64,000 bases of DNA from a virus (Duplodnaviria > Heunggongvirae > Uroviricota > Caudoviricetes): IMG/VR virus record IMGVR_UViG_3300042863_001217, one strand, 5' to 3'. The notes beneath the pieces were generated by a model. That model searched no databases. It was given only the letters and a program-made list of their open reading frames with translations, and was not told where the DNA came from. How positions within the stretch are numbered: the stretch's first letter is position 1; every line of letters begins with the position of its first letter. Of this stretch, positions 1 to 36,939 are shown piece by piece. The position numbers and the translations under genes were made by a program.

Positions 1-108
1 AGGGTCATGATTCATGCACTTAACCAACTGCATGCCCTTTCTTTGATTTTCTACCATTATTTAATATTTTATATTATGTTCGTTATATGATCTTTTTTAA
101 ATCAAGTT

Positions 109-912
109 TCAAATTAGATTAGAATTTACAAAATGCACTATATTATTTAAATCTGGATTGTGAAGTGTCCAATGATTAAATCCAAGTGATTCCATTCTAT
201 CGTAGATTTTTTGGGCTTTAGTTTCACCAATAGCATCAACGTGTAATTCCATAGATACACATCGAGTATTCTTTAGAAACTGATCACTCATACCATCAAA
301 TGCAAATATCTCTGCACCTTCAATATCCATCTTAATAAAGTCAGGTTGTTCAATTAATCTATTATTAATCATGGTGTCTACCGTCATTGACATTACGTTC
401 TGTAAAACGCCATCATCATATTTAACAATCGAGCTTCCACCTGGACAATCTGATTTGTAAGCTATTTTAACTAATTGATTATCAGTATTTGAAATGGCTA
501 CTTTGAACACTTCACATTGCTCTGGTTTATTTAGTAAGAGAAGCAAAAAGTTTTCATTTGTAGGTTCTACACTATAAATCTTCTTGGCACCTTTTGCCGC
601 AGCAAATCTACTAAAAACACCAATATTTGCACCTAAGTCCAAAACCACATCATTCGGTCTGATTTCGCATGCACCTCTTTGGTATAAGCAATCGTCAGTA
701 TAACCTCCAGAATGACAGTCAAATATTTCATAGTAGATCAAAACGGGTTCATCTATGATTCCCGCACTATAACTAGGGAAAACGTTATTTCGCACTACAT
801 ATTCCTCTTTAGCTAAATCTCTGTATTGAAGCCTAGATTCAGTTGAGGTCCAATAATTTGTATTTTGTTCTTTCATAATTCCTGTATTAATCATTATATG
901 TTTCCTTTGCAT
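109..912 (-). CDS. FkbM-family SAM-dependent methyltransferase
   Basis: 267-aa ORF. Motif VLDLGANIGVFSRF is typical of the FkbM/Methyltransf_21 family. Confidence 0.55.
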   Translation of the reverse strand: MQRKHIMINTGIMKEQNTNYWTSTESRLQYRDLAKEEYVVRNNVFPSYSAGIIDEPVLIYYEIFDCHSGGYTDDCLYQRGACEIRPNDVVLDLGANIGVFSRFAAAKGAKKIYSVEPTNENFLLLLLNKPEQCEVFKVAISNTDNQLVKIAYKSDCPGGSSIVKYDDGVLQNVMSMTVDTMINNRLIEQPDFIKMDIEGAEIFAFDGMSDQFLKNTRCVSMELHVDAIGETKAQKIYDRMESLGFNHWTLHNPDLNNIVHFVNSNLI

Positions 913-2511
913 TTAGTTTCATCTCTCATAGTTAGTTCAAGTCTCTGGGAAAATTAGATTTTGGGAAAATTTCAGCTAGGGAAAACCCCACCAAACGCTT
1001 CACACCATTAGGTACCCACATGGTCGTTCCGACCCAAATCTAGGCCCTGCTTAGTTTCTGGCACACTACTAATACACATGGATGTGGTATCCCAATTTCT
1101 ATTCTGTACCAGTGATTGCTCTGGCCAACTCGCAGTTACTCTGATCCTCTTTAAATACCATTGGCGTGGACGTGTGACCATAGTAAGTCTTGGATAGTCG
1201 CTGGGGTTTTTGGCATTCTGCAGGGTCAGTCTTGGTCTAGGTCACTGATTAGTTATATGGCTCAGATCAAGTGTGTAAGACACATCACTCTGTGTACTCT
1301 CTTTTTTTTCGCTGGTCCTTAAGGTATTCTGGTTCTTTAAGTACTAAGACATTTTAAGTGTCTAAGTGTCTAAGTTAATCCTCTATGGTTTATCTGAGTA
1401 CTCTGAATGCTCTGATACCTGGAAGTCATTTCTTGTCGCGCGCGCTTCATGTCGATCGGGCCCTTGGAGCTTAGTCCCCCGGGGACCCAATTTTTTGGGA
1501 ACCGGCGACATTGAACAAGTCGCGATTCTGTCGGGCCTGTCTGGCTCTTGAGTACTCTTTGTTTTGGGGGTATACAATCGAGGGTCTGATCCGAGTCCTC
1601 TAAGTGGTTTGAGTTGTTTGGCGCCATGAATAGGCCCTGAAGCGCTGGCCCCGGGGCGAGATAGTTAACGCCCATAGTTGACAGTCGAAAATGCGCTATA
1701 GCTAATATAGTAAGTGAAGGTCCATACCTTAAAATCGGCGTTTAATCGCGAGACATGCGCAATGCGCTTTTTAAAACCATGAATGGATCATGAGTGCTTA
1801 GTGTCTTATATGCTCCATGTGTTATATTAGGCCTTTATATACTCTGAGGCTTATAGAGCTCTCATGTGTATATGCTATATGTGTATATGTTTATACCCTA
1901 TATGGTTAATTAGCTTTATTAGCTTTATTGCTCTATATGGCTTAATTAGCTTATTTGTCTTAATTGCGTACAGGCTAAGGCAGGTAAGCTCTGGCGTACT
2001 GTTGGTGCTCTAGGCTCTATAGAGCTCTGTAGCTCTCTGTCTCTCTACTGTTATTGGCTAATCAGCTGATACTGTTGGTGTGCTGGTGCTCTTGGTGTGT
2101 CTGTGCTCTCTGTAGTACCTATTAGCCTATTAGTCTATTGCTAATATTAGCTCTCTGGTGAATTATTAGTCCTCTGTAGATATTAGCGCTATATTTGCTT
2201 CCGGCGAGCGCTCTGGGAGCTTATTTGGACTTATTTAGCTCCTGGGAAGCTCCTGGTGACTATATTTAGCTCCCGGAGAGCTCCTGGGAAGCTTCCTGGG
2301 GCTTACTCTGGGGAAGCTCCTGGGGACTTACTCCTGGAAGCTTCCTGGGAGCGCTGCTGGCGCTAATCTTACCTCTGGCGTGAAATCCTACTTTATATGC
2401 TCCGGCGGGGCTTTTGTTTCAAAGTGATCTGGGTAGTCTGGGGTCCTTGCACGAAATGTTCGTAACTTTACTAAAAATAAGTGCTTAAATATTTTTTTAT
2501 TTGGATTATTA

Positions 2512-2548
2512 TGTGTATATTTACTCTATAATTAAAACACTAAACAAT
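2512..2548 (+). promoter_or_regulatory. Conserved promoter/leader module (GTGTATATTTACTCTATAATTAAAAC...) directly upstream of the ATG
   Basis: One of at least 7 near-identical copies in the plus cassette. Contains a TATAAT -10-like hexamer. The copy runs into the start codon ATGTCAAA. Confidence 0.45.
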
Positions 2549-3046
2549 ATGTCAAACATGATTTTTAACCAAGAGAAGATTAACCAAGTAGATTTTATTA
2601 ATGGCCGTACTGGTCAGTATAGAGCAGTAGTAAAAGTTAAAGCCGGTTTTATGACCGTAGTAGATGACTTAGGTATACAATGTAACTGGGCTTCAGGTGC
2701 CAGATGGAAGTCTGCCTTATCTGTATTCCAATCATTTAAACGTGGTGCTTTACAGACCATTGAATTTAAGGCTGATGGGTCTGACTCTTGGCTTACTGTC
2801 TTTGCCCGTAAAGGTAATAAGATCATGTTAATGGACACTGATATGTTCTTAACTATGACTGTCGGTGATATTAACCAAGACTGGTCTACCACTAACCTTT
2901 ATAGTCAAGCTAACTATAAGATGGCTGGAGCTAAGACATGGGCTGATAAAGCCTTTGTTAGTAATACTGTTACTATAGAGGAGTTAAATCCTATTATAGC
3001 TGGTGTTGACTTCTCTGAGTCTTTGGCTGCCTTAGCTGCTCTTTAA
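2549..3046 (+). CDS. Hypothetical early/accessory protein (start trimmed to MSNMIFNQ...)
   Basis: In-frame ATG immediately after the conserved leader module. The annotated upstream M would lie inside the promoter element. Confidence 0.5.
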   Translation: MSNMIFNQEKINQVDFINGRTGQYRAVVKVKAGFMTVVDDLGIQCNWASGARWKSALSVFQSFKRGALQTIEFKADGSDSWLTVFARKGNKIMLMDTDMFLTMTVGDINQDWSTTNLYSQANYKMAGAKTWADKAFVSNTVTIEELNPIIAGVDFSESLAALAAL

Positions 3047-3093
3047 GATGTTCGTAACTTTTATCAGTTACCTATGTTCCATGTCATTTAAAT

Positions 3094-3129
3094 TGTGTAT
3101 ATTTACTCTATAATTAAAACTTAAACAAT
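3094..3129 (+). promoter_or_regulatory. Conserved promoter/leader module
   Basis: TGTGTATATTTACTCTATAATTAAAACTTAAACAAT followed by ATGTCAAAA. Confidence 0.45.
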
Positions 3130-3525
3130 ATGTCAAAAATTAATCAATTCGATCGTCAGTCATTACGCGCACTTCGTGCAGATTTGGACTCAGCAATGGC
3201 TGCCATTGCAACTAAGTATGGTATTCAGTTAAATGCTGGTAATATCTCATTCACATCAGATACTGCTACTATTAAAGTGGCTGCTGGTATTATCAAGAAC
3301 GGTACAGCTGTTACTGCTGAAGCCAAAGCCTTTGATCAGTATAAGCGTATGGTAGGTCTGGGTCACTTAAGTGTTGGTGATAGCATTACTCTTCAAGGTA
3401 AAGCATATACCATCACTGGTTATAAGCCTCGCTCTAGTAAAGCGCCTGTATGTGTTGAACATCGTGGTCGTGGCTTTAAGGTGTCAGTTGACATGGTTAA
3501 GATGTACAACTCAGTGCCTGCCTAA
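3130..3525 (+). CDS. Hypothetical protein
   Basis: 131-aa ORF preceded by the conserved module and followed by a hairpin plus T-run. Confidence 0.5.
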   Translation: MSKINQFDRQSLRALRADLDSAMAAIATKYGIQLNAGNISFTSDTATIKVAAGIIKNGTAVTAEAKAFDQYKRMVGLGHLSVGDSITLQGKAYTITGYKPRSSKAPVCVEHRGRGFKVSVDMVKMYNSVPA

Positions 3526-3549
3526 CTGTTAATAACTTTTGTGAAAATA

Positions 3550-3582
3550 GGTTGACAATTGCTTTGGGTTGTCAACCTTTTC
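3550..3582 (+). terminator. Rho-independent terminator-like hairpin
   Basis: GGTTGACAA-ttgctttggg-TTGTCAACC followed by TTTT. Confidence 0.45.
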
Positions 3583-4010
3583 ACGTATATTTACATATGA
3601 ATTTAAAAATAAGACACATGAAGTAGATGCTTAAAAATCAAAAAAGAGGTAGCACCTCAACAAGGGTTCGCTTTTTTCTCGGAGCGCAGAGGGTAGACTC
3701 CGACCTACGTGACACCCCCTCCCTCGATAGTGGTCCAAATGTTCGTAACTTTTATGAAAATAAATGCGCAATTGTTTTGGGTTGTCATTTAAATCACGTA
3801 TATTTACTATGTAATTAAAAATAAGCTATATGACGTAGATGACTAAAAATTCAAAAAGGGATAAAATCCCAACAGGGGCGGTCCTTTCAAAAGAAGGAGG
3901 AAGAGTAGACTCCGACCTGCTTTATATTTTTTTTATAAAGGCTGTTCATAACTATGTTAATAACTTTATTGAATTATTTTTAGGGGCCTATGTCCGGTTA
4001 AAGAAATTTG

Positions 4011-4046
4011 TTGTATATTTACTGTATAATTAAAACACTAAAAGAT
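4011..4046 (+). promoter_or_regulatory. Conserved promoter/leader module
   Basis: TTGTATATTTACTGTATAATTAAAACACTAAAAGAT followed by ATGTCAAAC. Confidence 0.45.
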
Positions 4047-4364
4047 ATGTCAAACATCAAAGATCAAATTCAGTCATGGGTAGCTACCGAAGCTCAAGCT
4101 ACTATTAATAACTACTATACTAAGGCATTGCCTAGTTTGCGTGTTCCAGAGCTTACCGTTAAATTTGGACAGAAATATGCCCAAGTCTGGAATGGTACTA
4201 CTATATGGGCTTTTATTGCTTTAACTGATGAGGTTGCCAAAGCACAACGTGTAGGTGACTTATTGAAGCCTGCTTCGTGGAGGGCTCCAGCTAAACATAG
4301 TCGTGGTAACATTATTGAAGGTACCGCTGCTTATGGTCCTTATGGTCCAGAGTACATAAAATAA
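4047..4364 (+). CDS. Hypothetical protein (start trimmed to MSNIKDQ...)
   Basis: ATG directly after the leader module. 105 aa. Confidence 0.5.
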   Translation: MSNIKDQIQSWVATEAQATINNYYTKALPSLRVPELTVKFGQKYAQVWNGTTIWAFIALTDEVAKAQRVGDLLKPASWRAPAKHSRGNIIEGTAAYGPYGPEYIK

Positions 4365-4406
4365 TTTGAAAATACTTGTCTAAATATTTTTTTATGTCGA
4401 GTATTA

Positions 4407-4443
4407 TGTGTATATTAGCTTTATAATTAAAAACAAACAGATC
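4407..4443 (+). promoter_or_regulatory. Conserved promoter/leader module (variant)
   Basis: TGTGTATATTAGCTTTATAATTAAAAACAAACAGATC followed by ATG. Confidence 0.4.
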
Positions 4444-4821
4444 ATGCCTTATATTTCAAAAGAACAAGTTAAAGTAAAACGAGAAGCCCTTAAGAAAGCC
4501 TTACCTCAGTTTAAGATGTCTATTACTACTGATAACTATAGTGGTATTAAAGTGGCTATCATGAAAGGTCCAGTTGATTTCGGTATTGAGTATGCTCAGT
4601 TAAATGAGTATGCTGATTATCGCGAACCACGTTGGGACAGAGACACTGAACAATATGTGTCCAATCCAGCTATAGCTGACCTAATGGAGACTGTGATGCC
4701 TATCTTAAATGATGGTATGCGTGAAGGTCATGATGATAGTGATTATGGTCATATACCTGATTACTATACTTGGGTTCATATTGGTCAATGGGATAAAGCC
4801 TACGAGGTGGTTAATGCGTAA
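4444..4821 (+). CDS. Hypothetical protein (MPYISKEQ...)
   Basis: ORF beginning after the leader module. 125 aa. Confidence 0.5.
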   Translation: MPYISKEQVKVKREALKKALPQFKMSITTDNYSGIKVAIMKGPVDFGIEYAQLNEYADYREPRWDRDTEQYVSNPAIADLMETVMPILNDGMREGHDDSDYGHIPDYYTWVHIGQWDKAYEVVNA

Positions 4822-5155
4822 ACTTAAAAAGTCTGATGTTAATGCTGATACACTGATGAGGTGGTCTAATCGTAAGTTAGGTCCCTCTAGGTGCAAACGT
4901 ATATTGATTGTAGATCGTAAAAGCCCTGATTACGGTTGGTATGATTGGCATGGTACAGTCTACATCAATATACGCAATATTAGTTCTATGACTTCAGTAT
5001 ACAGAACTATGGCGCACGAATGGACTCATGCTCAACAAACATATGGTCGGTATAATGCCTATCATAAGAAGCATGGCTATAAAAACAATCCATATGAGGT
5101 TGCTGCCCGCCGGAGAGAAAGAACTTGCTTTAGTGAATTGTTCGTAACTTTATAG
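4814..5155 (+). CDS. Small HExxH protein, putative zinc metallopeptidase-like
   Basis: Start ATG overlaps the stop of the upstream gene (aATGcgTAA). Begins MRKLKKSD. Contains MAHEWTHAQQ (an HExxH motif). The C-terminal codons overlap the TTGTTCGTAACTTTATAG box. Confidence 0.35.
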   Translation: MRKLKKSDVNADTLMRWSNRKLGPSRCKRILIVDRKSPDYGWYDWHGTVYINIRNISSMTSVYRTMAHEWTHAQQTYGRYNAYHKKHGYKNNPYEVAARRRERTCFSELFVTL

Positions 5156-5194
5156 AAAATAATTCACAAAAAGCTTTGGGTTGTCGTTTATATC

Positions 5195-5230
5195 GTGTAT
5201 ATTTACTCTATAATTAAAACACTAACAGAT
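5195..5230 (+). promoter_or_regulatory. Conserved promoter/leader module
   Basis: CGTGTATATTTACTCTATAATTAAAACACTAACAGAT followed by ATGTCAAAA. Confidence 0.45.
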
Positions 5231-5533
5231 ATGTCAAAAGAAACAATTTTAGTCCACACTCAATTTTACGAAAACTACAACGTCGGTCCTGATGGATTCG
5301 GTGAAACTCCATCTTGGAAAGCCAAAGGTGGTCATACCTTCTCAATTGAGATGGATGCTGATCTTTTAATGTACTCTGACTCTAAGGCTATTTTTAGCAA
5401 AATGTTAGAGATGCATAACACTATTGCAGAGCGTTTTGAATATATAGAGTATGAAATTCAATGGTCTAAACCAAGTCTTCTTGGGTATCAGGCTGATTAT
5501 ATAGCAGCTAACGAGGCTTTACAAACAGCCTAA
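5231..5533 (+). CDS. Hypothetical protein (MSKETIL...)
   Basis: 100-aa ORF after the leader module. Confidence 0.5.
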   Translation: MSKETILVHTQFYENYNVGPDGFGETPSWKAKGGHTFSIEMDADLLMYSDSKAIFSKMLEMHNTIAERFEYIEYEIQWSKPSLLGYQADYIAANEALQTA

Positions 5534-5586
5534 TCTTTTTTTGAAACAATTCATAATTTAACCATATAAAAATAAAAACAAATCTT

Positions 5587-6738
5587 ATGTCAGCAATCGC
5601 AACATTATCATCAGCAGTTCTTGAAAATCGTAGAGCTGAAACACGTAACTCTCAGTCAATTCGTAAAACTGTATCAGTACGTGATATTAACCTTGTTAAC
5701 GATACAACTATCGAGTATCAAGGTAAACGTCTAGAGATTACATCAGACGCATTCAAGTCTCTTATGAAATTGATCGGTATGTCAGCAACCTTTGCTGCTA
5801 AGTTCGAATCTCTATTTAACCCTGAGACCAAAGCAAAATTCGTTAACCAAATGAAAAACGCTATGGCAGCTCAGTTGAATGAGATCACCATTATATTGTC
5901 TCCACAGACTAAGAAGGTAGTTGGTTTCTCTAAGAATGCAACAGACCTTATTTCTCACGAACGTTTCATTTCATTGGCTGATCAAATTATCGATCAACAT
6001 GGCTTTGAAGTTACCAATTGGGGTGTAGATGCTACTAAAGGTTCAGTTATTATCAATGCTTTTAATCCTAAGGCACAATTTGACCTTGCAGGTCTTGGTT
6101 TAGCCAATGAGGTTTTCACCGCTGGTGTTACTCTTAAGAATTCACCTTTCGGAGGTATACAAGTTATGCCTTATGTTAACAGAATGTTCTGTACGAATGG
6201 CTTAACTACAGGATTGGCTAGCGAATCTTATTCACTATCTAATTTAAATCCTGAATCGATGGAGAACTTTCACCAACATATGAGTCAATTGCGTAAGAAT
6301 GGATTTGTACCTACTAATTTTGCTGAAACTGTGAAATTGGCTACTCAAACTCCAGCTTCTCTATGGGAAATGGAACGTGCATATAGTTCAATCAAACCAA
6401 TGGTTGGCGCACAAGCTGACTCTTGGATCCCTTTGAATGATAACTACTCAGCGTATACTAAAGCAGGTATGATGCCAGAAGGTTTCTCAGCTGCTCAAAA
6501 GAAAAACGCACGTACTGATCAATCAATCTGGTCATTGGTAAATGGTATGACTCACGTCGCTACACATGCACCAGAACAATTAGCATTTAACATGACTGAT
6601 AGAGAATCTACAGACTTGATGGTTAAAGCTGGTGGTATCTTCGGTAAGCAATTTGATTTAGGTAACACAATTCGTTCACCTTTCAAAGCAGATGCTCACT
6701 TAGAGGCTGAAATGCAAGTAGGAGCTTTATTAAACTAA
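5587..6738 (+). CDS. Hypothetical protein, 383 aa
   Basis: Long ORF with no recognisable motif. Lacks the conserved leader module. Followed by a long structured 3' region and a terminator. Confidence 0.55.
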   Translation: MSAIATLSSAVLENRRAETRNSQSIRKTVSVRDINLVNDTTIEYQGKRLEITSDAFKSLMKLIGMSATFAAKFESLFNPETKAKFVNQMKNAMAAQLNEITIILSPQTKKVVGFSKNATDLISHERFISLADQIIDQHGFEVTNWGVDATKGSVIINAFNPKAQFDLAGLGLANEVFTAGVTLKNSPFGGIQVMPYVNRMFCTNGLTTGLASESYSLSNLNPESMENFHQHMSQLRKNGFVPTNFAETVKLATQTPASLWEMERAYSSIKPMVGAQADSWIPLNDNYSAYTKAGMMPEGFSAAQKKNARTDQSIWSLVNGMTHVATHAPEQLAFNMTDRESTDLMVKAGGIFGKQFDLGNTIRSPFKADAHLEAEMQVGALLN

Positions 6739-6883
6739 AAACTCGTAACCTCATCCAGATCACAGACAATCGAAACTGTAAAATGGAGCTGTTGAAGATG
6801 AGGTTACTATGAAAACTGGGAGTATGGTTAGAGCAGCGTAAATTCTAGATAGCATTAAGACTCACGACCTAAGTCCCTTCCAA

Positions 6884-6913
6884 GCCGGTACTACATGTAC
6901 CGGCTTTCTTTTT
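6884..6913 (+). terminator. Rho-independent terminator
   Basis: GCCGGTAC-tacat-GTACCGGC followed by TTTCTTTTT. Confidence 0.6.
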
Positions 6914-6994
6914 GCTCCAAAGGCTGCCATTGGTGAATTATTTTCGCTTTTTTATGAAAATAAACGCAAATAAGCTTTGGGTTGTCATTTATTA

Positions 6995-7031
6995 TGTGTA
7001 TATTTACCTTATAATTAAAACACTAACAGAT
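6995..7031 (+). promoter_or_regulatory. Conserved promoter/leader module
   Basis: TGTGTATATTTACCTTATAATTAAAACACTAACAGAT followed by ATG. Confidence 0.45.
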
Positions 7032-7226
7032 ATGAAAGTCACAGTCAACATTTTACCATTTTTAGGAGCCTTAGTTATGGGTTTCATTAGTTACTCTATT
7101 ATGCAAGGTACTGCTCAAGAAGTGGTTCATTTTGCGGGTGTATTAAACGAGATCTTCACATTGGTTATGGCCATGATGATGACCTTAGGTCTTTTGATAA
7201 TGTCAATCTCAAAGGCTGCCAAATAA
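7032..7226 (+). CDS. Small membrane protein (MKVTVNILPFLGALVMGF...)
   Basis: 64 aa with two hydrophobic segments. ATG sits directly after the leader module. Confidence 0.4.
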   Translation: MKVTVNILPFLGALVMGFISYSIMQGTAQEVVHFAGVLNEIFTLVMAMMMTLGLLIMSISKAAK

Positions 7227-7273
7227 ATTGTTCGTAACTTTTACCTAATTTATTTTGGGTTGTCAAATAAAAG

Positions 7274-7310
7274 TTGTATATTAGCTCTATAATTAAAAGT
7301 CAAACACTAT
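7274..7310 (+). promoter_or_regulatory. Conserved promoter/leader module (variant)
   Basis: TTGTATATTAGCTCTATAATTAAAAGTCAAACACTAT followed by ATGTCAAAA. Confidence 0.4.
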
Positions 7311-8453
7311 ATGTCAAAATCATCTTACACAATTCACAAATTAGAGGCTGTTCCTAATAAGAAGCCTAATTTCAATCTTAAAAATATTGCTGATTCCGAG
7401 GACCAAGTCCTGATCACAGCAGAAAATCCTAAGTATGCCTATGTAGCAGAAAATCAGGGTCGTATTATTAACATCAACGGAGTTATGGCTTCAGGTGTTT
7501 TAAAGATGACCTCATCAGCTGACTACTATGATGCTTATGGTCTTAAACAAAAAACCAAGGTTGAGGTAGCCGCACCTAAAGCAGCTCCACTTAAAATCTC
7601 ATTAACCAAGTTAGATGACCTTAATTTCTCTGACGAGTTATTTAACCCTCTAACTACTGGTTTGGCAATAGACCAATTCTTATCTAATGACGGTGGCTTT
7701 ATGCCAGGTTCAAACATCATGGCTGCAGGTGCACCGGGTGTAGGTAAGACTACAGTTCTTTTAGAAACCTTATACGCAGTACAAAAGCAAGATCCTACCA
7801 AGCGTGTGCTGTTCATCTCAGCTGAAATGAACCAATTGGACATGGCTAGATACCTAAAAAGATTCCCACATTGGGGTCAGTTACCAATCTTATTCTTAAG
7901 TGACTATGTTGACCAAGATCCTCAAGCCGTAATAGAGCAAACATTGCAACAAGGTTGGGACATAGTCTTAACAGATAGTTACACCGAGGTGAATGACACA
8001 GTTAAAGAAGCTTGTAACATGACCAGAGGTAAAACTGAAAAGTGGTTCTTGGACATGATGATTGCCAATAACCAAGGTAAGAACCAAACCAAGAAGTATA
8101 CTACCTTCATCACCATTTTACAGTTATCTAAGGGTGGTACATTCGTCGGGTCCAACAAACTAAAACACATGACCACAGCCATGCTAGAATTAAACTGGAA
8201 AGGCAATGAGAATTCAGCTGAGCGTTATATGGAATTCAGTAAGAACCGTTTAGGCCAAGTAGGTCATAAGTTATTCTTTGACTTTACAGACGGAGTTAGT
8301 TTTGACACCAAGAGATACAAGCGAGATCTACTTAACTTGGAATTAATTGAGGATGAGAGAGCTAAGCTGACATCAGAAGAGGATAGCTTTGACCGTCTTT
8401 TCGGTGCTATACCTAATGAAAGTGACTCCACCCCGGCGGTAGAAGTAAACTAA
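7311..8453 (+). CDS. RecA-fold P-loop ATPase, DnaB-like helicase domain
   Basis: Walker A motif GAPGVGKTT. Downstream VLFISAEM resembles DnaB motif H1a (SLEM). ILQLSKGG resembles DnaB motif H3. Confidence 0.5.
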   Translation: MSKSSYTIHKLEAVPNKKPNFNLKNIADSEDQVLITAENPKYAYVAENQGRIININGVMASGVLKMTSSADYYDAYGLKQKTKVEVAAPKAAPLKISLTKLDDLNFSDELFNPLTTGLAIDQFLSNDGGFMPGSNIMAAGAPGVGKTTVLLETLYAVQKQDPTKRVLFISAEMNQLDMARYLKRFPHWGQLPILFLSDYVDQDPQAVIEQTLQQGWDIVLTDSYTEVNDTVKEACNMTRGKTEKWFLDMMIANNQGKNQTKKYTTFITILQLSKGGTFVGSNKLKHMTTAMLELNWKGNENSAERYMEFSKNRLGQVGHKLFFDFTDGVSFDTKRYKRDLLNLELIEDERAKLTSEEDSFDRLFGAIPNESDSTPAVEVN

Positions 8454-9117
8454 TTGCTCATTGGGCTCAGTGGAGCTCTTCAAATAATATCCGACCCGGC
8501 GGAGACATAGCACCGGGGCTTTTAATTATATCATGGGAGGCTTTGACACCTCCGTGCCCACACCAGACCTGACTAGTTTGGTGTTGTGGGATCCAGGGAG
8601 CTGACAGGGCTGTGGGAGCCTCTGGAGTGTGTATGTGTTAGCGTTCGCGTTTGACTCATCTCCTGGCGCACCGCAACACCAATGAACGATACTAATAAGC
8701 GCTATATATCTGATCCCCTGGGGACCTTACTGGATACGAGTTCGTTTTAAATTGTGGGGTTTGGTATTCTTACCACTTTTTACCACTTTATACCACTAAA
8801 TACCATAACGGGGCTTAAAACCTTAAAAGGGCTTAAAAGAGACGCTAAGGCGCTCCATTGGTGGTGGGACCATTACCATTTTTGTCTATTGGTATATCTG
8901 GTCTTTATTGCCCATACTATATAAGGGATTGCTAGAAGGATTACTATGTATATCATATTGGTTTATCTGGTATCTGGGTTAGGGTTTGAGTTTATCCTTA
9001 TCCCTTTGGAATTATCTTATATCTATCTAGTCTATTAGGATATGGTGTTTATTGTGTTGGTAGCGCGCGTTTTGGTTATGCTGGTTTTGATGGAAATAAT
9101 TGGGTTGGGTTGCGTGC

Positions 9118-9147
9118 AAAAAAAAGACCTCTTAATTAGAGGCCTTC
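9118..9147 (-). terminator. Rho-independent terminator (minus strand)
   Basis: Minus strand reads AGGCCTCTAATTAAGAGGTCT followed by TTTTTTTT, just downstream of the stop at 9172. Confidence 0.55.
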
Positions 9148-9171
9148 TGTGTGTGTATTGTGTGTGTTTGA

Positions 9172-9861
9172 TTATACGCTATAACCTTCACCTTTTAAAT
9201 AGTCTGTAACATCGTTAAGTGCATCTTCAAATCCTTTAGAAGATTCAACACCAGCATTAGGTCCCCATTCTTGATCCATCCAATCTTCTAATGAAGACCA
9301 CATACTATCTTTCCAGTCTTTGTTTTTTGGAAATTCATCCATAAATTCATCTCCAATATTATAAGAGTCAATATCAGACCATTTTTTCTTTTCGTTTAAT
9401 GTTTTAGAAAATTGTTCGAATAGTTTAATGTGTTTCATTCCGTGTTTGGTACTCGATGTGTTTGATTCATTAATATCGTATCCATCCCAGTCCCATTTGT
9501 AACCTTTACCATCAGCAGCTGTACCTTGATAACCATACATTCCTTTTGTAAATCCATCAAAGAATATAGCAACTCCATTGTCTTCAAGCTCTTGAGCTTT
9601 TTCTCTTGCAGCATCTTCATCGATGGCTTCAACTGTAACATCACCATTGTATACTATGTATAAGATTCCTTTATCAAATGTTAATTCAGCTCCATGGAAC
9701 CATTCTTCACCATCATTTTCTTCGTCATTCATTGGTTCTTCACCCATTTCGAAGTTAGGTATTTGTGAGAGTCCAAATTTTAGAGCCTCTTTTTCTGTTT
9801 TATAGAAATTTACTTGAGAATAATCAGGTGCATTTTCTGCTACGTAATATACTTTTGCCAT
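9172..9861 (-). CDS. Hypothetical protein with an internal in-frame copy of the conserved MKHIKLFEQF leader
   Basis: 229-aa ORF. Residues ...STKHG-MKHIKLFEQFSKTLNE... lie mid-protein. This could be two genes fused in frame, or an alternative start. Confidence 0.45.
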   Translation of the reverse strand: MAKVYYVAENAPDYSQVNFYKTEKEALKFGLSQIPNFEMGEEPMNDEENDGEEWFHGAELTFDKGILYIVYNGDVTVEAIDEDAAREKAQELEDNGVAIFFDGFTKGMYGYQGTAADGKGYKWDWDGYDINESNTSSTKHGMKHIKLFEQFSKTLNEKKKWSDIDSYNIGDEFMDEFPKNKDWKDSMWSSLEDWMDQEWGPNAGVESSKGFEDALNDVTDYLKGEGYSV

Positions 9862-18295: not shown

Positions 18296-21016
18296 TTATG
18301 GTGCTATAGGATCTTCTTTTCTATTGTGTGTAATTATACCATTTGCTACGTATACATCATTAGACTCTACGTCTAATTTATAAACTTTAAATGATCCACT
18401 ATTTTTTACAATAGAAGTAATTAGATGTTCATATCCATCTTGATTAATAAATGAATCGCCAACTAAAATATCATTAGCTTTCATTACAGACCATACTGAA
18501 TTTCTTTTTATAATATGCACGTGATCTTCACTTGAAGTTAATAAACCATCATTAAAACTTAACACGCTATTTACAATGTGTTCAGTATTTTGAGTAACTG
18601 TAGCCGATGTATTAGATAAAGTTGGATTTGTTTGAGACCATTGTATTAAATTCTGATAATTATCTCCATCTGGCATATTACCTATTATCATTGAAGATAA
18701 TTCCATACCAATTGTTAACGATTCTATTGTAGCGTGAGTACCGTTTGATAATTTAACTAAAGTTCCTTCTAGTAAACATCCTCCTGGAGTTCCGGCACAT
18801 AATTCAAATATAGTATACTCAGGTGGTGTTGTATCAGGCTGAACTAATCTCCAACACGTTCCAGATGCATCGTCTACATATACTAATTGATCAAGATTAT
18901 ATAAATCACTATATGGTCCCACATACGAATATACACCTCCATCATTTCTTTCTGCTAACCATGATCTATATACAGTTGGAGTAGGTTTATCTGGTGTTGC
19001 TGTAGGATTTGGAATATATTCGCTGTAACTACATCCAAATTCACTTGTACATCCAATAGTTTGGTCAATTACGAAAATATCATCTGAAATTATAAATACC
19101 ATTTCTGATGAGTCCCATGTACTTGGCACTGAACTACTACATACTGAATATACTGCTCCAGATCTTCCATTATAATAATAAGGTGAAGCTAGCATTTCAT
19201 TAAATGTTCTTTGTATATAACTTCCAAAATTATAACCTAATCCATATCTAAATATGTCCACTGTATCAGCTACCCATACATGATAACATGTACCCGAAGG
19301 TGCATCAGTTGGTCTCGGAGTTGATGTCGGAGGAACTAAGGTCGGTTCTGGTATATATGTAGTTGGTGTTGGTGGAATCGGTGTTGCTGTTGGATAACCT
19401 GCACCTGCACCCGAAGATGAATAACATTGAGATCCAATTTGTGTTATAATAATATTTTGATAATATGCAATTGCTTTTACACATAAAACAACAGGTTGAG
19501 AATATGGTGTTAAATACACTGTATCACTTCTACCATCACACATTGTATATTGTATGTAACCACTATTCCAACTATCTGTTAATTGAAAATTATAAGTATA
19601 ACAAGGTACAGCTGTTGCTGTTGGTGGAATTGGCGTTGCCGTTGGTAGGTTTAACGAACTGTCAAGTATTCTTACATTAACTGTATCTAATACAATACTA
19701 CTAGCATTAGTAAGTTTTACAATCAACCATTCATCACCTTCTGTTAAATTATCAGATTTTGTGGTTAATTCAAATACACCTTGACCATTTACACCCGAAG
19801 TAGTAGTAATTACTACATAACCATTGTTGATAGCTTCAACCAAATCACTTGCATTTGCATTATATGGTCCTAATTCCCACCAAAGTGTTGTTGGTGATGC
19901 ATTTAAATATTGTGTGTCAACTACAAATGTAATTTTTACATTTTCTTCATTGACTTGTGTTTTATTAGCAGAAATACTATAAGTAGGTGGAAACCAATAC
20001 TCATCAGTTACATAACCAAGTACACTATCGTAGTATACAGCATATGCTGATCCTGCTTCATAATACCATCCACTGGGCGCTGTTTCACACGTAGCTATAT
20101 AACTATTGTCACATAAAGTTTGTATGCCAGAGATTAAGCCTGTGTTGATCCAGTTACCGTTACTATCAAATGTAACTTGATCGTATCTTCCAACTGGAGT
20201 AGTTGCAGTAGATAAGCCATAATAATAATTACCAGGATATGTTGATGCTAATGAACTTTGTACCATTAATTGTGCATCGTATGAATTACAAATACCTAAT
20301 AAATTATATTCAAAATAAGTTTGATCTGTTGAATTATTAACATCGTCATTTCCACCTGGAACATCATCAGTTATTAAAATAATAAGTTTAATTGCATCAG
20401 ATCTAAATGATCCTGCAATATTATTAGACAATATTTCATTGATCCCTAAACCACCGGGTTCTGGCGCACCTTGACCATATCCTAAAGGAAAACTAGGTGT
20501 AGCTAATAAATTAAGTTTTGTTTGAAAATCAGTAATTGAACCAACATTACCTAATGGTTGCATACATGTAATAAATTGAGTTCTATTATTAAATGTGTTT
20601 ATCACAGCTTTTTGTGATGCTGGTAAATTTAAGTATATAGATGTCTGTCCATAGTTGTTTGACGGTGGAGATGTTAGATTACCGGCATATTCATCAAATA
20701 TGCAAAGTCCTACTCTATAATTACCTAATGATTCACTATCGATAGTACTTAAAATATTAGCAATACCAGCTTTAACACCATTGATTGCACCGTCCATAGA
20801 TCCAGTATAGTCAACTAAAAATACTATATCTAACCCTGTAGTACATTGAGTTGGAATAGTTAATTTATTTTGGTTTATAGCTAGACCATTTGTAGAATAA
20901 GTCTTAAAAACATTTGAATTGTTAATATTATTAGGACTTAATGGATCATAAGCTAAACTTACAAAACTAGTCGGTGGTACACAAGATTGCCCATATGAGC
21001 TTACAGATAATGCCAT
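18296..21016 (-). CDS. vWA-domain protein with C-terminal Hint (Hedgehog/intein-like) domain and PT-rich linkers: 'Vint'-like structural/adhesin protein
   Basis: vWA MIDAS motifs DIVFLVDYTGSM and LIILITDDVPGG. C-terminal ~150-aa module starts GG|CLLEGTLV and ends ...ANGIITHN, then 8 more residues. Confidence 0.6.
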   Translation of the reverse strand: MALSVSSYGQSCVPPTSFVSLAYDPLSPNNINNSNVFKTYSTNGLAINQNKLTIPTQCTTGLDIVFLVDYTGSMDGAINGVKAGIANILSTIDSESLGNYRVGLCIFDEYAGNLTSPPSNNYGQTSIYLNLPASQKAVINTFNNRTQFITCMQPLGNVGSITDFQTKLNLLATPSFPLGYGQGAPEPGGLGINEILSNNIAGSFRSDAIKLIILITDDVPGGNDDVNNSTDQTYFEYNLLGICNSYDAQLMVQSSLASTYPGNYYYGLSTATTPVGRYDQVTFDSNGNWINTGLISGIQTLCDNSYIATCETAPSGWYYEAGSAYAVYYDSVLGYVTDEYWFPPTYSISANKTQVNEENVKITFVVDTQYLNASPTTLWWELGPYNANASDLVEAINNGYVVITTTSGVNGQGVFELTTKSDNLTEGDEWLIVKLTNASSIVLDTVNVRILDSSLNLPTATPIPPTATAVPCYTYNFQLTDSWNSGYIQYTMCDGRSDTVYLTPYSQPVVLCVKAIAYYQNIIITQIGSQCYSSSGAGAGYPTATPIPPTPTTYIPEPTLVPPTSTPRPTDAPSGTCYHVWVADTVDIFRYGLGYNFGSYIQRTFNEMLASPYYYNGRSGAVYSVCSSSVPSTWDSSEMVFIISDDIFVIDQTIGCTSEFGCSYSEYIPNPTATPDKPTPTVYRSWLAERNDGGVYSYVGPYSDLYNLDQLVYVDDASGTCWRLVQPDTTPPEYTIFELCAGTPGGCLLEGTLVKLSNGTHATIESLTIGMELSSMIIGNMPDGDNYQNLIQWSQTNPTLSNTSATVTQNTEHIVNSVLSFNDGLLTSSEDHVHIIKRNSVWSVMKANDILVGDSFINQDGYEHLITSIVKNSGSFKVYKLDVESNDVYVANGIITHNRKEDPIAP

Positions 21017-21029
21017 TATTTATTTTATT

Positions 21030-24000
21030 TTATTTCGGTGTACAATTTGAGTTAGTAAATATTGCAGTTACTGTAAATCCAACTCCATCGTAGTCTGATT
21101 GATTACCAGTAACATATACATATTTATTATCCCATAATTGAGCAGCGACATTATTGTATATGCTTTCTGCAAATTTAGTATTACTTGCATGATCCCAAAC
21201 TAATAATACTGATGCGGTTCCAGTTGCATCTACACCCCATAGAGTGTATCTAACTTCTTGTGTATTATCACTTACACCGTATGAAGACTCAATTCCAGTT
21301 AAAATCATACCTTCTAAAGCAAATGTATATGGTATTAATACAAATGATTTTTGAAGTGATTGATTTGTAATTTTTTCATCTCTTGGAGTTGCACAAATTG
21401 ATACATGTTCATAACATGATCCTATGCCCGCTTCTCCAGGTTGTCCAGGTTGTCCATTGATACCTGATGTACCATTTGTTCCTGAAGAACCATTTGTACC
21501 ATTTGTTCCTGAAGAACCATTAGTTCCAGATGTACCATTTGTACCATGTGTTCCTGAAGTTCCATTAGTACCACTTGTACCATCTCTACCAGAAGAACCG
21601 CTTGTACCATCTTTACCTGAAGTTCCATTAGTACCACTCGTACCATTTAAACCAGAAGTACCATTAGTTCCTGATGTTCCATTAGTTCCATTAATTCCTG
21701 AAGAACCATTAGTTCCAGATGTACCATTAGTACCACTTGTACCATTAGTTCCAGATGTACCATTAATACCGCTTGAACCGCTTGTACCATCTCTACCTGA
21801 AGAACCATTTGTACCAGAAGTACCATTAGTTCCTGAAGAACCATTAGTTCCTGATGTTCCATTAGTTCCAGATGTACCATTAGTACCATGTGTTCCTGAA
21901 GTTCCATTAGTTCCAGAAGTTCCATTAGTACCGCTTGTACCATTAGAACCATTTATTCCTGAAGATCCATTAGTTCCTGAAGTTCCACGCTCACCGTTTG
22001 TACCACTAGTTCCATTTGTACCTGAAGAACCATTAGTTCCTGAAGTACCATTTGCGCCAGATGTACCATTAGTTCCTGAAGAACCATTAGTACCACTTGT
22101 ACCGTTAGTTCCATGTGTTCCTGAAGAACCATTAGTTCCTGATGTTCCATTAGTTCCTGATGTTCCATTAGTACCACTTGTTCCATTAGTTCCATTAGTT
22201 CCTGAAGTTCCACGCTCTCCGTTTGTACCACTAGTACCATTTAAACCAGATGTTCCATTAGTTCCTGAAGAACCATTAGTACCACTAGTACCATTAATTC
22301 CAGAAGAACCACTAGTACCATTAATTCCAGAAGAACCATTTGCACCTGAAGTTCCATTTATACCATCTCTACCTGAAGAACCATCTGTACCTGAAGTTCC
22401 ACGCTCTCCGTTTATACCATCAGTTCCACTTGTTCCATTTATACCACTAGTACCATTAGTTCCAGAAGTTCCGTTAGTTCCTGAAGTTCCGTTAGTTCCA
22501 TGTGTACCTGAAGTACCATTAGTTCCAGAAGTTCCGTTAGTTCCACTTGTTCCATTTGCACCTGAAGTTCCGTTAGTACCATCTCTACCTGAAGAACCAT
22601 TTGTACCACTAGTACCATTAGTTCCTGAAGTTCCGTTAGTTCCACTTGTTCCATTTGCACCTGAAGTTCCGTTAGTTCCATGTGTACCTGAAGTTCCGTT
22701 AGTTCCAGAAGAACCATTAGTTCCTGAAGATCCATTTGTTCCAGAAGAACCATTAGTACCTGATGTACCACGTTCTCCATTTATACCACTTGAACCATCA
22801 GTTCCAGAAGTTCCATCTAATCCATTACGACCATCAATACCACTAGTTCCATTAGTTCCAGAAGTTCCATTTATACCGCTTGTGCCATTTGAACCATTAG
22901 TACCACTAGTTCCATTTGTTCCAGAAGAACCATTAGTTCCATTTGTTCCAGAAGAACCATTAGTACCAGATGTACCATTAGTTCCACTAGTTCCATTTGT
23001 TCCAGAAGAACCATTAGTTCCTGAAGTTCCATTTGAACCATTAGTACCACTCGTACCGTTTGTTCCAGAAGAACCATTAGTTCCTGATGTACCATTAGCA
23101 CCGCTTGTGCCATTTGAACCATTTAAACCCGATGTACCATTAGTTCCAGAAGAACCATTAGTTCCAGAAGTTCCAGTATCACCTTTAGCGCCTGAAGTTC
23201 CATTAGTACCAGATGTACCATTAGTTCCAGAAGAACCATTAGTTCCTGAAGAACCATCAGCACCATCAAATCCAGATGTACCATTATTACCATTAGTTCC
23301 TGAAGTTCCGTTAGTTCCTGAAGTTCCGTGTGATCCATCCATTCCACTAGTACCATTAATACCAGAAGATCCATCATTACCTCTTGAACCTGAAGTTCCA
23401 TCAGTTCCATTTGAACCTGAAGTTCCATTAGTTCCTGAAGTTCCATTAGTTCCTGAAGAACCATTAGTTCCTGAAGTTCCATCAGATCCATTTGTACCAT
23501 TTGTTCCATTTGTTCCAGAAGATCCATCAGAACCATTAGTTCCATTAGTTCCATTTGTTCCAGAAGAACCATTAGTTCCATTTGTTCCAGAAGAACCGCT
23601 TGTTCCAGGATTTCCAGTTACACCGCTTGTTCCATTTGTTCCATTTGTTCCAGAAGAACCATTTGTTCCAGAAGAACCATTAGTTCCTGAAGAACCATTT
23701 GTTCCTGAAGAACCATTAGATCCATTTGTTCCAGATGTACCATTAGAACCCGCAGGTCCTTCAGTTGCACCTAAAGATGAAACTATATGTGAATAATTTG
23801 AAACGCCTTCTGTATAAAATTTAATAGTTCTATTTTGATTATCATCGTTAATAGCATAAATTTGAACTAATACTTTATCAGTAGGACTTATATAATGTTG
23901 TTCTAAAAATAAGTCTTGATATACATCCACTGGAATTGCAGTAGAAGTGTCCCATCCTATTAATGTAGGTGTAGTTGTTCCCCACACAGCAATTGGTATT

Positions 24001-24914
24001 CCACCTGCATCTGTACGAGTAACCTTAACATATACTTGAATAGCATGTGAATCTACTTCTTTAGTGAAGTGCATTAAAAATGATTGAATACCAGCAGATA
24101 CTACTGCAACACCTAATCCAACTGGAGTTATAAATTGAGTAACTAATACATCTGATTGCAACGGAGTTAAATCAGTAGTTACTATTTGTTGTACACTAGA
24201 TACTGGGATTGGTGAAATTTCATTAAGATCATTTGCACCGCCACCATTATTAACTACAGTAACTGATTCATTCATATAGAATATTTGACCAGTGCTATAA
24301 CCTGCTTCTCCTTGTAAACCATTAACTCCACTTGAACCTGAAGTTCCATCAATTCCTGATGTACCATTAGTACCACTTGTTCCATCAATTCCAGAAGTAC
24401 CATTAGTACCATCTAAACCGTTTAAACTAACTTCTACCCATGGATCATTACCATTAGTTGAAGATGGTGTATATAATTGTGGTAAAAATGTTGGAGGTCC
24501 ACCTATAACATTTGTGTATATTTGTGTACTATTAGGTTTTAAAAGACCTGCGCGAACCCATTGTGGTAACGCTTGCCATTCAGTATCACCTAAAACACCA
24601 TTATTGCCCCAATATCCTTTAGGTATTAAGACATAAAATTTATTTTCTTCAATGACATAAACTAGCATACCAACTGATCGAATACCCGTTGTATATCCAC
24701 CATCGTTTGAAACTGTAAAACCAATATGTGTAACTGGTGCAGGTGCTTCACCCCAAATAGGTAAGGCATTTCTTTCTTCAATTGTAAATACCTTTTGATA
24801 CCCACCCTTTACATGTTGTGCATGTACAATTCCTTCATAAGGACTTAATGATGAACTTGGCGAAATAAAATTACCAAAGGCGTATTGTGTTGAAACTGGT
24901 CTAGTAAATCCCAT
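21030..24914 (-). CDS. Collagen-like repeat protein (virion fibre candidate), 1294 aa
   Basis: Several hundred residues of uninterrupted G-X-Y triplets (GTNGTSGTNGSSG...), flanked by non-collagenous N- and C-terminal domains. Confidence 0.7.
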   Translation of the reverse strand: MGFTRPVSTQYAFGNFISPSSSLSPYEGIVHAQHVKGGYQKVFTIEERNALPIWGEAPAPVTHIGFTVSNDGGYTTGIRSVGMLVYVIEENKFYVLIPKGYWGNNGVLGDTEWQALPQWVRAGLLKPNSTQIYTNVIGGPPTFLPQLYTPSSTNGNDPWVEVSLNGLDGTNGTSGIDGTSGTNGTSGIDGTSGSSGVNGLQGEAGYSTGQIFYMNESVTVVNNGGGANDLNEISPIPVSSVQQIVTTDLTPLQSDVLVTQFITPVGLGVAVVSAGIQSFLMHFTKEVDSHAIQVYVKVTRTDAGGIPIAVWGTTTPTLIGWDTSTAIPVDVYQDLFLEQHYISPTDKVLVQIYAINDDNQNRTIKFYTEGVSNYSHIVSSLGATEGPAGSNGTSGTNGSNGSSGTNGSSGTNGSSGTNGSSGTNGTNGTSGVTGNPGTSGSSGTNGTNGSSGTNGTNGTNGSDGSSGTNGTNGTNGSDGTSGTNGSSGTNGTSGTNGTSGSNGTDGTSGSRGNDGSSGINGTSGMDGSHGTSGTNGTSGTNGNNGTSGFDGADGSSGTNGSSGTNGTSGTNGTSGAKGDTGTSGTNGSSGTNGTSGLNGSNGTSGANGTSGTNGSSGTNGTSGTNGSNGTSGTNGSSGTNGTSGTNGTSGTNGSSGTNGTNGSSGTNGTSGTNGSNGTSGINGTSGTNGTSGIDGRNGLDGTSGTDGSSGINGERGTSGTNGSSGTNGSSGTNGSSGTNGTSGTHGTNGTSGANGTSGTNGTSGTNGTSGTNGSSGRDGTNGTSGANGTSGTNGTSGTNGTSGTHGTNGTSGTNGTSGTNGTSGINGTSGTDGINGERGTSGTDGSSGRDGINGTSGANGSSGINGTSGSSGINGTSGTNGSSGTNGTSGLNGTSGTNGERGTSGTNGTNGTSGTNGTSGTNGTSGTNGSSGTHGTNGTSGTNGSSGTNGTSGANGTSGTNGSSGTNGTSGTNGERGTSGTNGSSGINGSNGTSGTNGTSGTNGTSGTHGTNGTSGTNGTSGTNGSSGTNGTSGTNGSSGRDGTSGSSGINGTSGTNGTSGTNGTSGTNGSSGINGTNGTSGTNGTSGLNGTSGTNGTSGKDGTSGSSGRDGTSGTNGTSGTHGTNGTSGTNGSSGTNGTNGSSGTNGTSGINGQPGQPGEAGIGSCYEHVSICATPRDEKITNQSLQKSFVLIPYTFALEGMILTGIESSYGVSDNTQEVRYTLWGVDATGTASVLLVWDHASNTKFAESIYNNVAAQLWDNKYVYVTGNQSDYDGVGFTVTAIFTNSNCTPK
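21434..23760 (-). repeat. Tandem 9-bp-unit DNA repeats encoding collagen G-X-Y triplets
   Basis: Low-complexity periodic DNA. Produces artefactual ORFs on the opposite strand. Confidence 0.7.
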
Positions 24915-36920: not shown

Positions 36921-36939
36921 CATAAAAGTTGCGAACAAT

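Follow-up and report, generated by a model that had tools for sequence, protein, structure and literature searches.

A conserved, palindrome- and repeat-rich non-coding element at the edge of the early region of an uncultured marine phage

A non-coding region kept among relatives

What is a 1.5-kb, gene-free stretch of elevated guanine-plus-cytosine (GC) content doing between two divergent transcription units of an AT-rich phage genome? The stretch in question occupies positions 913-2452 of the 64,000 nucleotides (nt) that we analyzed from IMG/VR record IMGVR_UViG_3300042863_001217 (hereafter the window), and we refer to it as the left module. A preliminary description, made from the letters of the window, had taken 913-2460 to be a non-coding functional site and had proposed an iteron-bearing replication origin, a packaging or terminal-repeat region, or a long structured RNA. 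The functional-site claim held up: position and block order were kept in at least 20 contigs, together with several invariant motifs, and the region is a real, conserved and unusual cis element, akin to the repeat- and palindrome-rich non-coding control regions of large virulent phages. The proposed extent was sound except at its right limit: the first early-promoter module occupies 2453-2540, and the region therefore stops at 2452. What is conserved is a set of sequence motifs, symmetric as direct repeats or dyads, and not a fold supported by covariation. We consider the region to be probably a protein-binding double-stranded DNA element; for its specific role an iteron-type replication origin is our first choice, held tentatively.

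A sequence identical to the window was contained in a 260,917-nt metagenome contig (ENA ERZ27272104:k141_203066), and over 8.5 kb three more independent assemblies showed 0-2 differences from the window; since the same sequence was recovered in independent assemblies, 913-2452 is not an assembly artefact. We found no DNA similarity, near or distant, between the window and deposited phages, and no close cultured phage, and the large proteins of the window had few or no phage relatives. Marine metagenomes were rich in relatives, including IMG/VR contigs of 140-256 kb, and relatives of an ATPase from the cassette to the right of the region were encoded on more than 440 metagenome contigs. We treated the source as an uncultured marine jumbo phage of a ~260-kb family. 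A Bacteroidota host is suggested because the early promoters fit TTTG-N19-TAnnTTT(G/A) and one window protein has an SprB-repeat domain. The window has a GC content of ~33% and carries nearly all of its genes on the minus strand, among them genes for glycosyltransferases, sugar epimerases, a peptidoglycan amidase and a 1,294-aa collagen-repeat protein, and one tRNA-Ala.

The region is non-coding. When we counted stop codons across 900-2500, TAA, TAG and TGA each occurred 3-21 times in all six frames, and with every stop type present in every frame recoding cannot rescue a gene; we rejected it. The overlapping open reading frames (ORFs) of the GC island, which the preliminary description had thought not credible, proved spurious against the closest relative, L012, our reference for pairwise alignment. 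Only the first 15 residues of the 101-aa minus-strand ORF at 1370-1675 matched L012, 1-nt indels broke the frame, and substitutions numbered 20/13/14 at codon positions 1/2/3, and we rejected this ORF as a real gene. Independent gene calls on the same DNA left a 1.65-kb gap here, and no tRNA or tmRNA was found in the region. The GC content was indeed elevated (0.41-0.55, about 44%) relative to the other intergenic segments of the window (0.16-0.37, pooled about 0.29). The further claim that the plus strand is poor in A was right as to the numbers (A 21%, AT skew -0.2 to -0.43; the pooled intergenic AT skew of the window is -0.12), but T exceeds A on the plus strand across the whole window, so that the bias is only partly specific to the region; we rejected it as a special signal, it being largely a genome-wide trend.

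Expectations for palindromes and repeats were taken from 500 dinucleotide shuffles, and two coding segments served as controls. The island at 1430-1680 proved as rich in palindromes as had been proposed, with counts above all 500 shuffles (14 six-base palindromes where 3.6 were expected, and 6 eight-base palindromes where 0.9 were expected). The degenerate direct repeats described for 1850-2400 were likewise far above shuffle expectation (74 repeated 8-mers against 10.5, and 31 repeated 10-mers against 0.9) and surpassed all or nearly all of the shuffles, and the individual words that had been named were present in their places. Neither coding control showed palindrome or repeat enrichment. 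Within the 64 kb, CCCCGGGG, CCCGGG, GGGCCC, GAGTACTC and GGAAGCTTCC are unique to the region, and AGCTCCTGG-type words are concentrated at 2237-2323. Tandem Repeats Finder arrays had periods of 8, 9, 12, 17, 25, 31 and 36, and in 15 relatives the spacing of YTRAGK words peaked at 9 and 18 bp and that of AGCT at 11-12, 24-25 and 36 bp. Arrays of at least three phased direct repeats were present with periods of 9, 12 and 16 bp, in units shorter than classical iterons, and repeat copy number differed among strains (in the 12-bp phased GGAAGCTTCC-type array). Being phased, palindromic and variable in copy number, these repeats resemble binding sites for dimeric or oligomerizing DNA-binding proteins. 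A Chi-like reading of the GCTGGTG and TTGGTG words was rejected, their enrichment being too low.

Profile searches placed the left module in at least 20 related marine contigs whose cassette ATPase is 57-99% identical to that of the window (~20 of the 80 relative loci examined), and in these it always lies at the left edge of the early region. The module of the relatives comprises 0.8-2.3 kb without a conserved ORF, in some cases cut by the contig end, and has a GC content of 42-53%, above the locus average except in L043. We observed no comparable architecture in a 484-kb uncultured phage with a distant homolog of the ATPase. The order of blocks is shared: GGGAAAAT repeats by the first leftward gene come first, then a core rich in GC, a variable spacer rich in G+T, the array of ~12-bp repeats and, last, a conserved tail that closes with a GC hairpin and TTTTGTTTCAAA. 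Invariant or nearly so were CCCCGGGG-n-CCCAAT-T(4-6), GGGCC(C), GATAGTT..GCGC and GCTATAGCTAATATA, as were the GAGTACTC-type 9-mers that flank the core left and right and the units GGAAGCTTCC and CTGGGGACTTACT of the ~12-bp array. Most of these elements are perfect palindromes or tandem repeats, and they are invariant even where the cassette ATPase of the relative is only 57-70% identical. In the relative L002, a 256-kb IMG/VR contig, a 183-aa low-complexity minus-strand ORF (5301-5852) fills the left half of the non-coding module.

Against L012 the full 1.55 kb aligned at 80% identity, and the flanking genes at 85-94%. The alignment is a mosaic in which identical or near-identical runs of 100-140 bases (1196-1335, 1644-1760 and 2350-2470) are separated by short, fully rewritten patches and by a fast-evolving spacer at 1790-2190. 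The lower identity relative to the flanking genes, the rewriting of 1790-2190 between relatives, the unstable repeat number and the frequency with which assemblies break here (see below) would all be expected if the region were a largely neutral, slippage-prone spacer, functional only at its promoter-proximal ends, with repeats generated by slippage and template switching. We consider this very unlikely, given that runs of more than 100 identical bases persist despite the 80% overall identity, that the motifs are invariant at such low ATPase identity, that in every relative the GC content is 15 points over that of other intergenic DNA, and that the block order is the same across the family.

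Motif map, transcription control and RNA

The left end of the module, which we call block A (913-991), contains three GGGAAAAT repeats at 16-bp spacing (947, 963 and 979) and adjoins the first leftward gene, whose start codon is at 912. Block A was kept in L012, L018, L025, L026 and L016, and in L009 it adjoins a different first gene; the leftward operon probably has its promoter or regulatory sequences in this block. The sequence that follows (992-1390) is less conserved except for the block at 1196-1335, which pairwise alignment showed to be near-identical between the window and L012 and which holds the hairpin GTGTGT-AAG-ACACAT and then a T8 run. At 1390-1420 lies the left arm of a set of 9-bp phased repeats of (C)TGAGTACTC type, recognized by a period of 9 in Tandem Repeats Finder and in the palindrome list, with the right arm, which includes GAGTCCTCTAAGTGGTTTGAGTTG, at 1546-1625. 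The 8-bp palindrome GAGTACTC occurs in both arms (1396 and 1550), and the right-arm repeat takes the form of three copies of TTTGAGTGC in L059 and three of TTTGAGTCC in L012.

Between the two arms, GC palindromes occupy 1437-1457, namely GCGCGCGC (1437-1445) and GGGCCC (~1452), the latter occurring once in the 64 kb and kept as GGGCC(C) in most relatives. They are followed by the core motif GTCCCCCGGGGAC-CCAA-TTTTTT-GGG (1474-1499), in which columns are invariant or at least 90% conserved; CCCCGGGG and CCCAAT with its T-run are near-invariant across the family, and the core motif does not occur elsewhere in the window. A host origin for this site was considered and rejected, as a search of 185,579 bacterial and archaeal genomes gave three chance matches, in high-GC metagenome-assembled genomes. 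The one match in IMG/VR was to a contig already among the relatives. The adjacent hairpin GAACCGGCGAC / GTCGCGATTC (1499-1528) shows two double compensatory changes in L012, where A-U has become C-G and C-G has become U-A with pairing kept (alignment columns 218-248); it is lost in more distant subfamilies.

To the right of the core, 1644-1790 is nearly identical between the window and L012 (~115 identical bases within 1644-1760) and holds GCCCCGGGGC (1648), GATAGTT and the family-invariant GCTATAGCTAATATA (1695-1709), which includes the palindrome GCTATAGC. The reverse complement of GCTATAGCTAATATA, TATATTAGCT, matches the first half of the early-promoter core, and the GCTATAGCTAATATA block may act as a promoter or operator. 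AT-rich tandem repeats fill 1864-1967 (four copies of ATGTGTAT, about five of ATTAGCTTT and two of a 36-bp unit); they are found in part in L012, and distant relatives have G+T-rich sequence of 40-60% GC instead. The fast-evolving, G+T-rich spacer at 1968-2227 has GCTCT and TGGTG words and contains the palindromes GCTCTATAGAGC (2014), ATCAGCTGAT (2061) and GCTAATATTAGC (2140), as well as GGTGCTCTTGGTG (2088-2100), common to the window, L016, L025 and L026. Next comes the ~12-bp repeat array (block C, 2228-2366) of CTGGGAAGCTTC and CTGGGGACTTACT units, whose core palindrome, GGAAGCTTCC, occurs at 2287 and 2336. Over ~100 nt the array is an imperfect inverted repeat, its arms lying at 2266-2299 and 2333-2366. 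On the plus strand a terminator-like GC hairpin followed by TTTTGTTTC (2399-2421) lies in the family-conserved tail TTTATATGCT...TTTTGTTTCAAA. The first early-promoter module (TGTTCGTAACTTT plus GTATATTTACTCTATAATTAAAAC, plus strand, 2453-2540) is the right boundary and stands outside the element, which thus lies just upstream of the plus-strand cassette as the preliminary description had it.

The region is the divergence point of the leftward operon (start at 912) and the rightward early cassette (first promoter at 2453-2540), and it might accordingly be nothing other than a transcription-control or insulator region shared upstream of the divergent units, in which operator arrays time the switch between early and leftward transcription and terminator-like hairpins would block read-through. 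Block A is always beside the first leftward gene, whichever gene that is, TATATTAGCT supplies half of the early-promoter core, and plus-strand terminator-like hairpins with T-runs were found at 1474, 2197 and 2399. In L008 and L010 the plus cassette is separated from the GC-rich region by early promoters and genes on the minus strand; this indicates that the element marks the edge of the early region and not one particular promoter, and it too is in keeping with a control region. However, no Bacteroidota-type promoter (TTTG-N17-22-TAnnTTTG) was found within 913-2452 on either strand, the 1.2-kb interior is very long for operators, phased arrays of 5-8 repeats are unusual for simple repression, and no regulator gene was identified. 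On balance we regard transcription control as the sole role of the region as rather unlikely, though a serious rival to an origin.

Of the three options originally offered, a structured RNA is the weakest. In Rfam 15 no family matched the region even at E<=1 beyond chance-level microRNA matches (E-values 0.4-0.9, far below gathering scores), and at the gathering threshold the whole window returned the tRNA only. RNAalifold gave just 3 pairs at -1.3 kcal/mol for 19 core sequences, that is, no consensus structure. For the six closest sequences it returned a structure whose covariation term was +1.89, a net penalty, and in block C the term was only -1.33, with double changes at 3 of 21 pairs. Folding z-scores for 913-2200 ran from +1.3 to -1.4, no better than shuffles or coding controls; those for 2190-2460 were -3.7 (plus strand) and -3.0 (minus strand). 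Block C alone scored about equally on both strands (-3.1 and -2.95 against shuffles), and its hairpin follows automatically from an array of palindromic units. On all of this evidence we regard a large structured RNA as unlikely. A z-score from column shuffling was not used, because conserved palindromes always beat shuffled columns.

A plus-strand non-coding RNA, either as one long transcript or, more plausibly, as a short one of ~150 nt at 2262-2420 made up of the long hairpin of block C and the terminator hairpin, nevertheless accounts for several observations. The region is a GC-rich island in an AT-rich genome, and in the block C stem of 12 sequences G-T cells outnumbered A-C cells by 79 to 11 (ratio expected from composition, 2.4); the stem was 5-27 kcal/mol more stable on the plus strand in 12 of 12 relatives. 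A -7-box-like TATATTTA (2261-2268) stands directly before the block C hairpin, the GC hairpin at the 3' side is conserved and followed by TTTTGTTTCAAA, the hairpin at 1499-1528 shows its two double compensatory changes against L012, and other ORF-poor, promoter-driven units (3524-3950) suggest that the early region may yield small RNAs. Set against these are the lack of an Rfam match and of a consensus structure, the unfavorable or small covariation terms, the ordinary or strand-symmetric z-scores, the absence of a complete promoter among those sought, and the form of the invariant motifs, which are perfect palindromes of a kind that an RNA does not need. We judge an RNA of either size to be unlikely as the function of the region; the ~150-nt version at 2262-2420 is possible.

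The early region, its right-hand module and the origin reading

The cassette, on the plus strand at 2453-8453, comprises ten short units, and a near-identical promoter module (TGTTCGTAACTTT, ~45 nt, then GTATATTTACTCTATAATTAAAAC) precedes each of them. The module also occurs on the minus strand at 36856-36937 and 58600-58843, which indicates that the cassette is the phage's own and not foreign DNA. The Bacteroidota form TTTG-N19-TAnnTTTA is matched by most copies, with eight copies in the window within three mismatches of the core and looser variants at ~4410 and 58550-58790; the promoter leaders are A-rich and without a Shine-Dalgarno sequence. The cassette products are mostly uncharacterized, with LPD29, DUF7717 and small HExxH metallopeptidase domains among them. 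The last gene (7311-8453), 5 kb from the left module, encodes a RecA-fold ATPase closest to RadA and DnaB. A conserved 383-aa cassette protein (5587-6738) had no match in Pfam, PHROG, NCBIfam or the PDB; the 481 protein clusters that matched it contain homologs that are all labeled hypothetical, and its AlphaFold model was poor (predicted local distance difference test score 57).

The preliminary description had covered the left module and missed a second conserved module across the cassette, at 8454-9130, adjoining the ATPase gene. This right module is also non-coding and GC-elevated, and in an nhmmer alignment of at least 22 relatives it was conserved better than the left. It contains an intrinsic terminator (~8494-8524) and the hairpins GGAGG..CCTCC (8536-8553) and CACCAGAC..GTTTGGTG (8561-8584), all three with compensatory changes by pair counts. 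Farther along, AATGAACGAT (8681-8690) is invariant, a palindrome, ATCCCCTGGGGAC, lies at 8713-8725, and an invariant 10-bp unit, TTACCACTTT, is repeated four times at 8770-8809, downstream of the ATPase gene. In seven genomes we found no long direct or inverted repeat common to both modules, only 9-17-nt words with chance-level E-values, and since short words are all that they share, the modules are not transposon ends. We likewise rejected the island 913-9130 as a mobile element, there being no terminal inverted or direct repeats at both ends, and as a circular element, there being no circular overlaps in short contigs and no circular contig.

The left and right modules are hot spots for assembly breaks. 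Among 64 whole metagenome contigs, nine start no more than 60 nt from the first left-module match and eight stop inside the right module. Counted over the 18 contigs that hold the left module, about 12 start at or near its beginning (9 within 60 nt and 3 at 87-135 nt). The starts are scattered rather than sharp, seven of them falling 19-212 nt upstream of the core motif, and contigs of 99-261 kb pass straight through the region. Breaks at both modules fit repeats and strain-level variation. Many contigs of 4-8 kb (L011, L024, L030, L037, L041, L049, L058, L059 and others) consist of the early cassette alone, from left module to right module.

The main rival to an origin is a genome-end, packaging or injection boundary: the region would be, or lie next to, the concatemer junction or one edge of a long terminal repeat with the early cassette inside it. 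Terminase would then recognize or cut the GC-tract/T6/GC-tract, and the repeat arrays would be accessory or DNA-entry-control sites, much as may be seen in the untranslated repeat regions of the T5 left terminal repeat, the short repeats beside the T7 terminal repeat or the herpesvirus 'a' sequence. The contig starts just described speak for it, as does the adjoining cassette, in which a strong host-type promoter stands before every short gene and products carry LPD29, DUF7717 and HExxH peptidase domains, typical of early host-takeover or anti-defense genes. The overall picture, non-coding and with many stops, is like that of the T5 iss region, and the invariant CCCCGGGGACCCAATTTTTTGGG has the form of a pac1 site, an A/T tract between G/C tracts. 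Such a flanked A/T tract is present and near-invariant here (CCCCGGGG-A-CCCAA-TTTTTT-GGG), but the match is one of form only. The scatter of the contig starts and the long contigs that cross the region are at odds with a defined genome end, the two modules have no long direct or inverted repeat in common, unlike T5 with its 131-bp inverted repeat, the DnaA boxes of T5 are absent, and no terminase gene lies nearby. Jumbo phages, moreover, commonly use headful packaging. We consider a genome-end boundary rather unlikely, yet, like transcription control, a serious rival.

An iteron-type origin remains our tentative first choice because of the phased repeats, the GC-rich and AT-rich sub-blocks, the helicase-like ATPase gene in the cluster and the iterons of the partner module. 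Whatever its exact role, the region is probably a composite cis element that works as double-stranded DNA, with phased repeat arrays and dyad sites where proteins gather into a complex, between the rightward early cassette of host-takeover type and the leftward operon for DNA metabolism and modification. Its 9-bp and 12-bp repeats would serve as iterons for a phage-encoded or host DNA-binding protein, and dimeric proteins would bind its palindromes, both the GC-rich CCCCGGGG and GGGCCC and GCTATAGC; assembly would start replication, perhaps together with the iteron-bearing right module beside the RadA/DnaB-like ATPase gene, and the outermost 80-100 bp at each end would be the promoter regions of the two divergent transcription units.

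Of the iteron origin as first proposed the phased direct repeats stand, and several points weigh against it. DnaA boxes (TTATCCACA, one mismatch allowed) were absent within 1-9500, both flanks included; the AT-rich candidate unwinding block is not conserved beyond L012; and no initiator or Rep-type protein was recognized, the 383-aa cassette protein being without a family match. The genes on both sides of the island run in the same direction, with no genome-wide strand switch, 1.5 kb is long for an origin, and repeats of 9-12 bp are shorter than classical iterons of 17-22 bp. The excess of G-T over A-C cells in block C points to a single-stranded, plus-strand form. Finally, the invariant and better-conserved iterons, by the ATPase gene, sit in the right module, which may be a better origin candidate than 913-2452.

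The two modules could also be taken together as a new kind of bracket around the first-expressed genes, either a T5-like entry or terminal-repeat boundary without DnaA boxes, or an element that acts single-stranded, as plus-strand RNA or single-stranded DNA. The single-stranded version would explain the G-T-rich hairpins, but we put no great weight on the bracket in either form and think it improbable.

The genes to the left of the region, all on the minus strand, encode an FkbM-type methyltransferase, two thymidylate-synthase-like proteins, a SIS-domain protein, a nucleotidyl-transferase, an RNase H-like protein and a ClpB-like AAA+ protein (L092 1-8346, left of the window; window 109-912), and this gene set of the leftward operon suggests a phage DNA with hypermodified bases.

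Some further features of the early region and the window were observed along the way. Against the near-identical L011 the cassette is itself a mosaic: identity per 250-nt bin ranges over 84-100%, and entire units have come or gone. Two tandem promoter-driven units of ~212 bp (3524-3736 and 3737-3950) have no convincing ORF and share the word AGRGTAGACTCCGACCT; small RNAs or micro-peptides are possible products (MLKNQKR.. and MTKNSKR.., both with RVDSDL), and ~170 aligned columns within 3501-3750 are gapped in L011, where one unit is apparently missing. In L002 the first cassette gene is tandemly duplicated (6573-7059 and 7597-8104). Another gene-poor stretch of ~1.2 kb, at 58536-59717, contains the tRNA-Ala (58891-58965, minus strand), then two early-promoter modules and small ORFs, and its GC content is ordinary (0.33), unlike that of both cassette flanks. 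The word (G)ATATATAA recurs 15-35 nt upstream of minus-strand gene starts (e.g., 18200, 27950, 29670, 40990, 45815 and 61700) and may be a middle or late promoter motif; no comparably placed copy was found inside 913-2452. The 1,294-aa protein (21030-24914, minus strand) consists of collagen-triple-helix repeats (Pfam E-value 9e-118), and the 790-aa ORF at 21424-23796 on the plus strand is almost certainly a shadow of its GGX repeats. A 906-aa protein (18296-21016, minus strand) had weak matches to VWA and intein splicing C-terminal domains (E-value 2e-4, below the Pfam cut-off).

Likenesses to known systems

The lineage is uncultured yet widespread in marine metagenomes, and the two modules are its clearest candidates for the cis functions of origin, packaging and early-gene control. 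They supply precise motifs for binding and read-terminus work, and they explain why metagenome assemblies of these phages break at these two places. If the region is T5-like, two-step DNA entry or terminal-repeat host-takeover modules would extend to Bacteroidota jumbo phages; if instead the modules form a bracket of a new kind, they would be a previously undescribed class of cis element, abundant in the ocean.

Like GOLLD, ROOL and similar Rfam RNAs, the left module is a long GC-rich intergenic island in an AT-rich phage with short motifs set between variable stretches; it differs from them in having no covariance-model match and no covariation-supported architecture, and in that its conserved motifs are palindromes and tandem repeats. 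A second likeness is to the herpesvirus 'a' sequence, which has 12-bp direct repeats of variable copy number and a pac1 site consisting of an A/T tract flanked by C tracts (PMC10763189). Both have short direct repeats, one unit being 12 bp long, in GC-rich arrays that vary in copy number among strains, and both have a conserved A/T tract between G/C tracts, although the virus lineage and the sequence are unrelated and the analogy is one of form only.

Iteron origins such as lambda ori, P1 oriR and T4 oriE likewise combine arrays of phased direct repeats with sub-blocks rich in GC or in AT, and share with the left module a helicase-like ATPase gene within the gene cluster. Their repeats are 17-22 bp long, the classical iteron length, whereas those of the left module are of 9-12 bp and several unrelated families occur together. 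The left module is also 3-5 times longer than a typical origin of this type and lacks DnaA boxes, a conserved AT-rich unwinding element and a recognizable initiator.

The T5 iss region is a non-coding stretch of 1,662 bp with 97 stop codons (Davison, bioRxiv 10.1101/866236). There is no sequence similarity between T5 and the window, whose host is probably a member of the Bacteroidota and whose genome is ~260 kb, and the DnaA-box pairs and large inverted repeat that define the T5 regions are absent here. In stop codons, synteny and repeats, however, 913-2452 agrees with the description of an untranslated repeat region of the T5 type. In the untranslated regions of the T5 left terminal repeat, as in the left module, order is conserved among relatives while neighboring genes vary, the region lies beside genes that are expressed first from host-type promoters, and early genes separate it by a few kb from a second non-coding repeat region.

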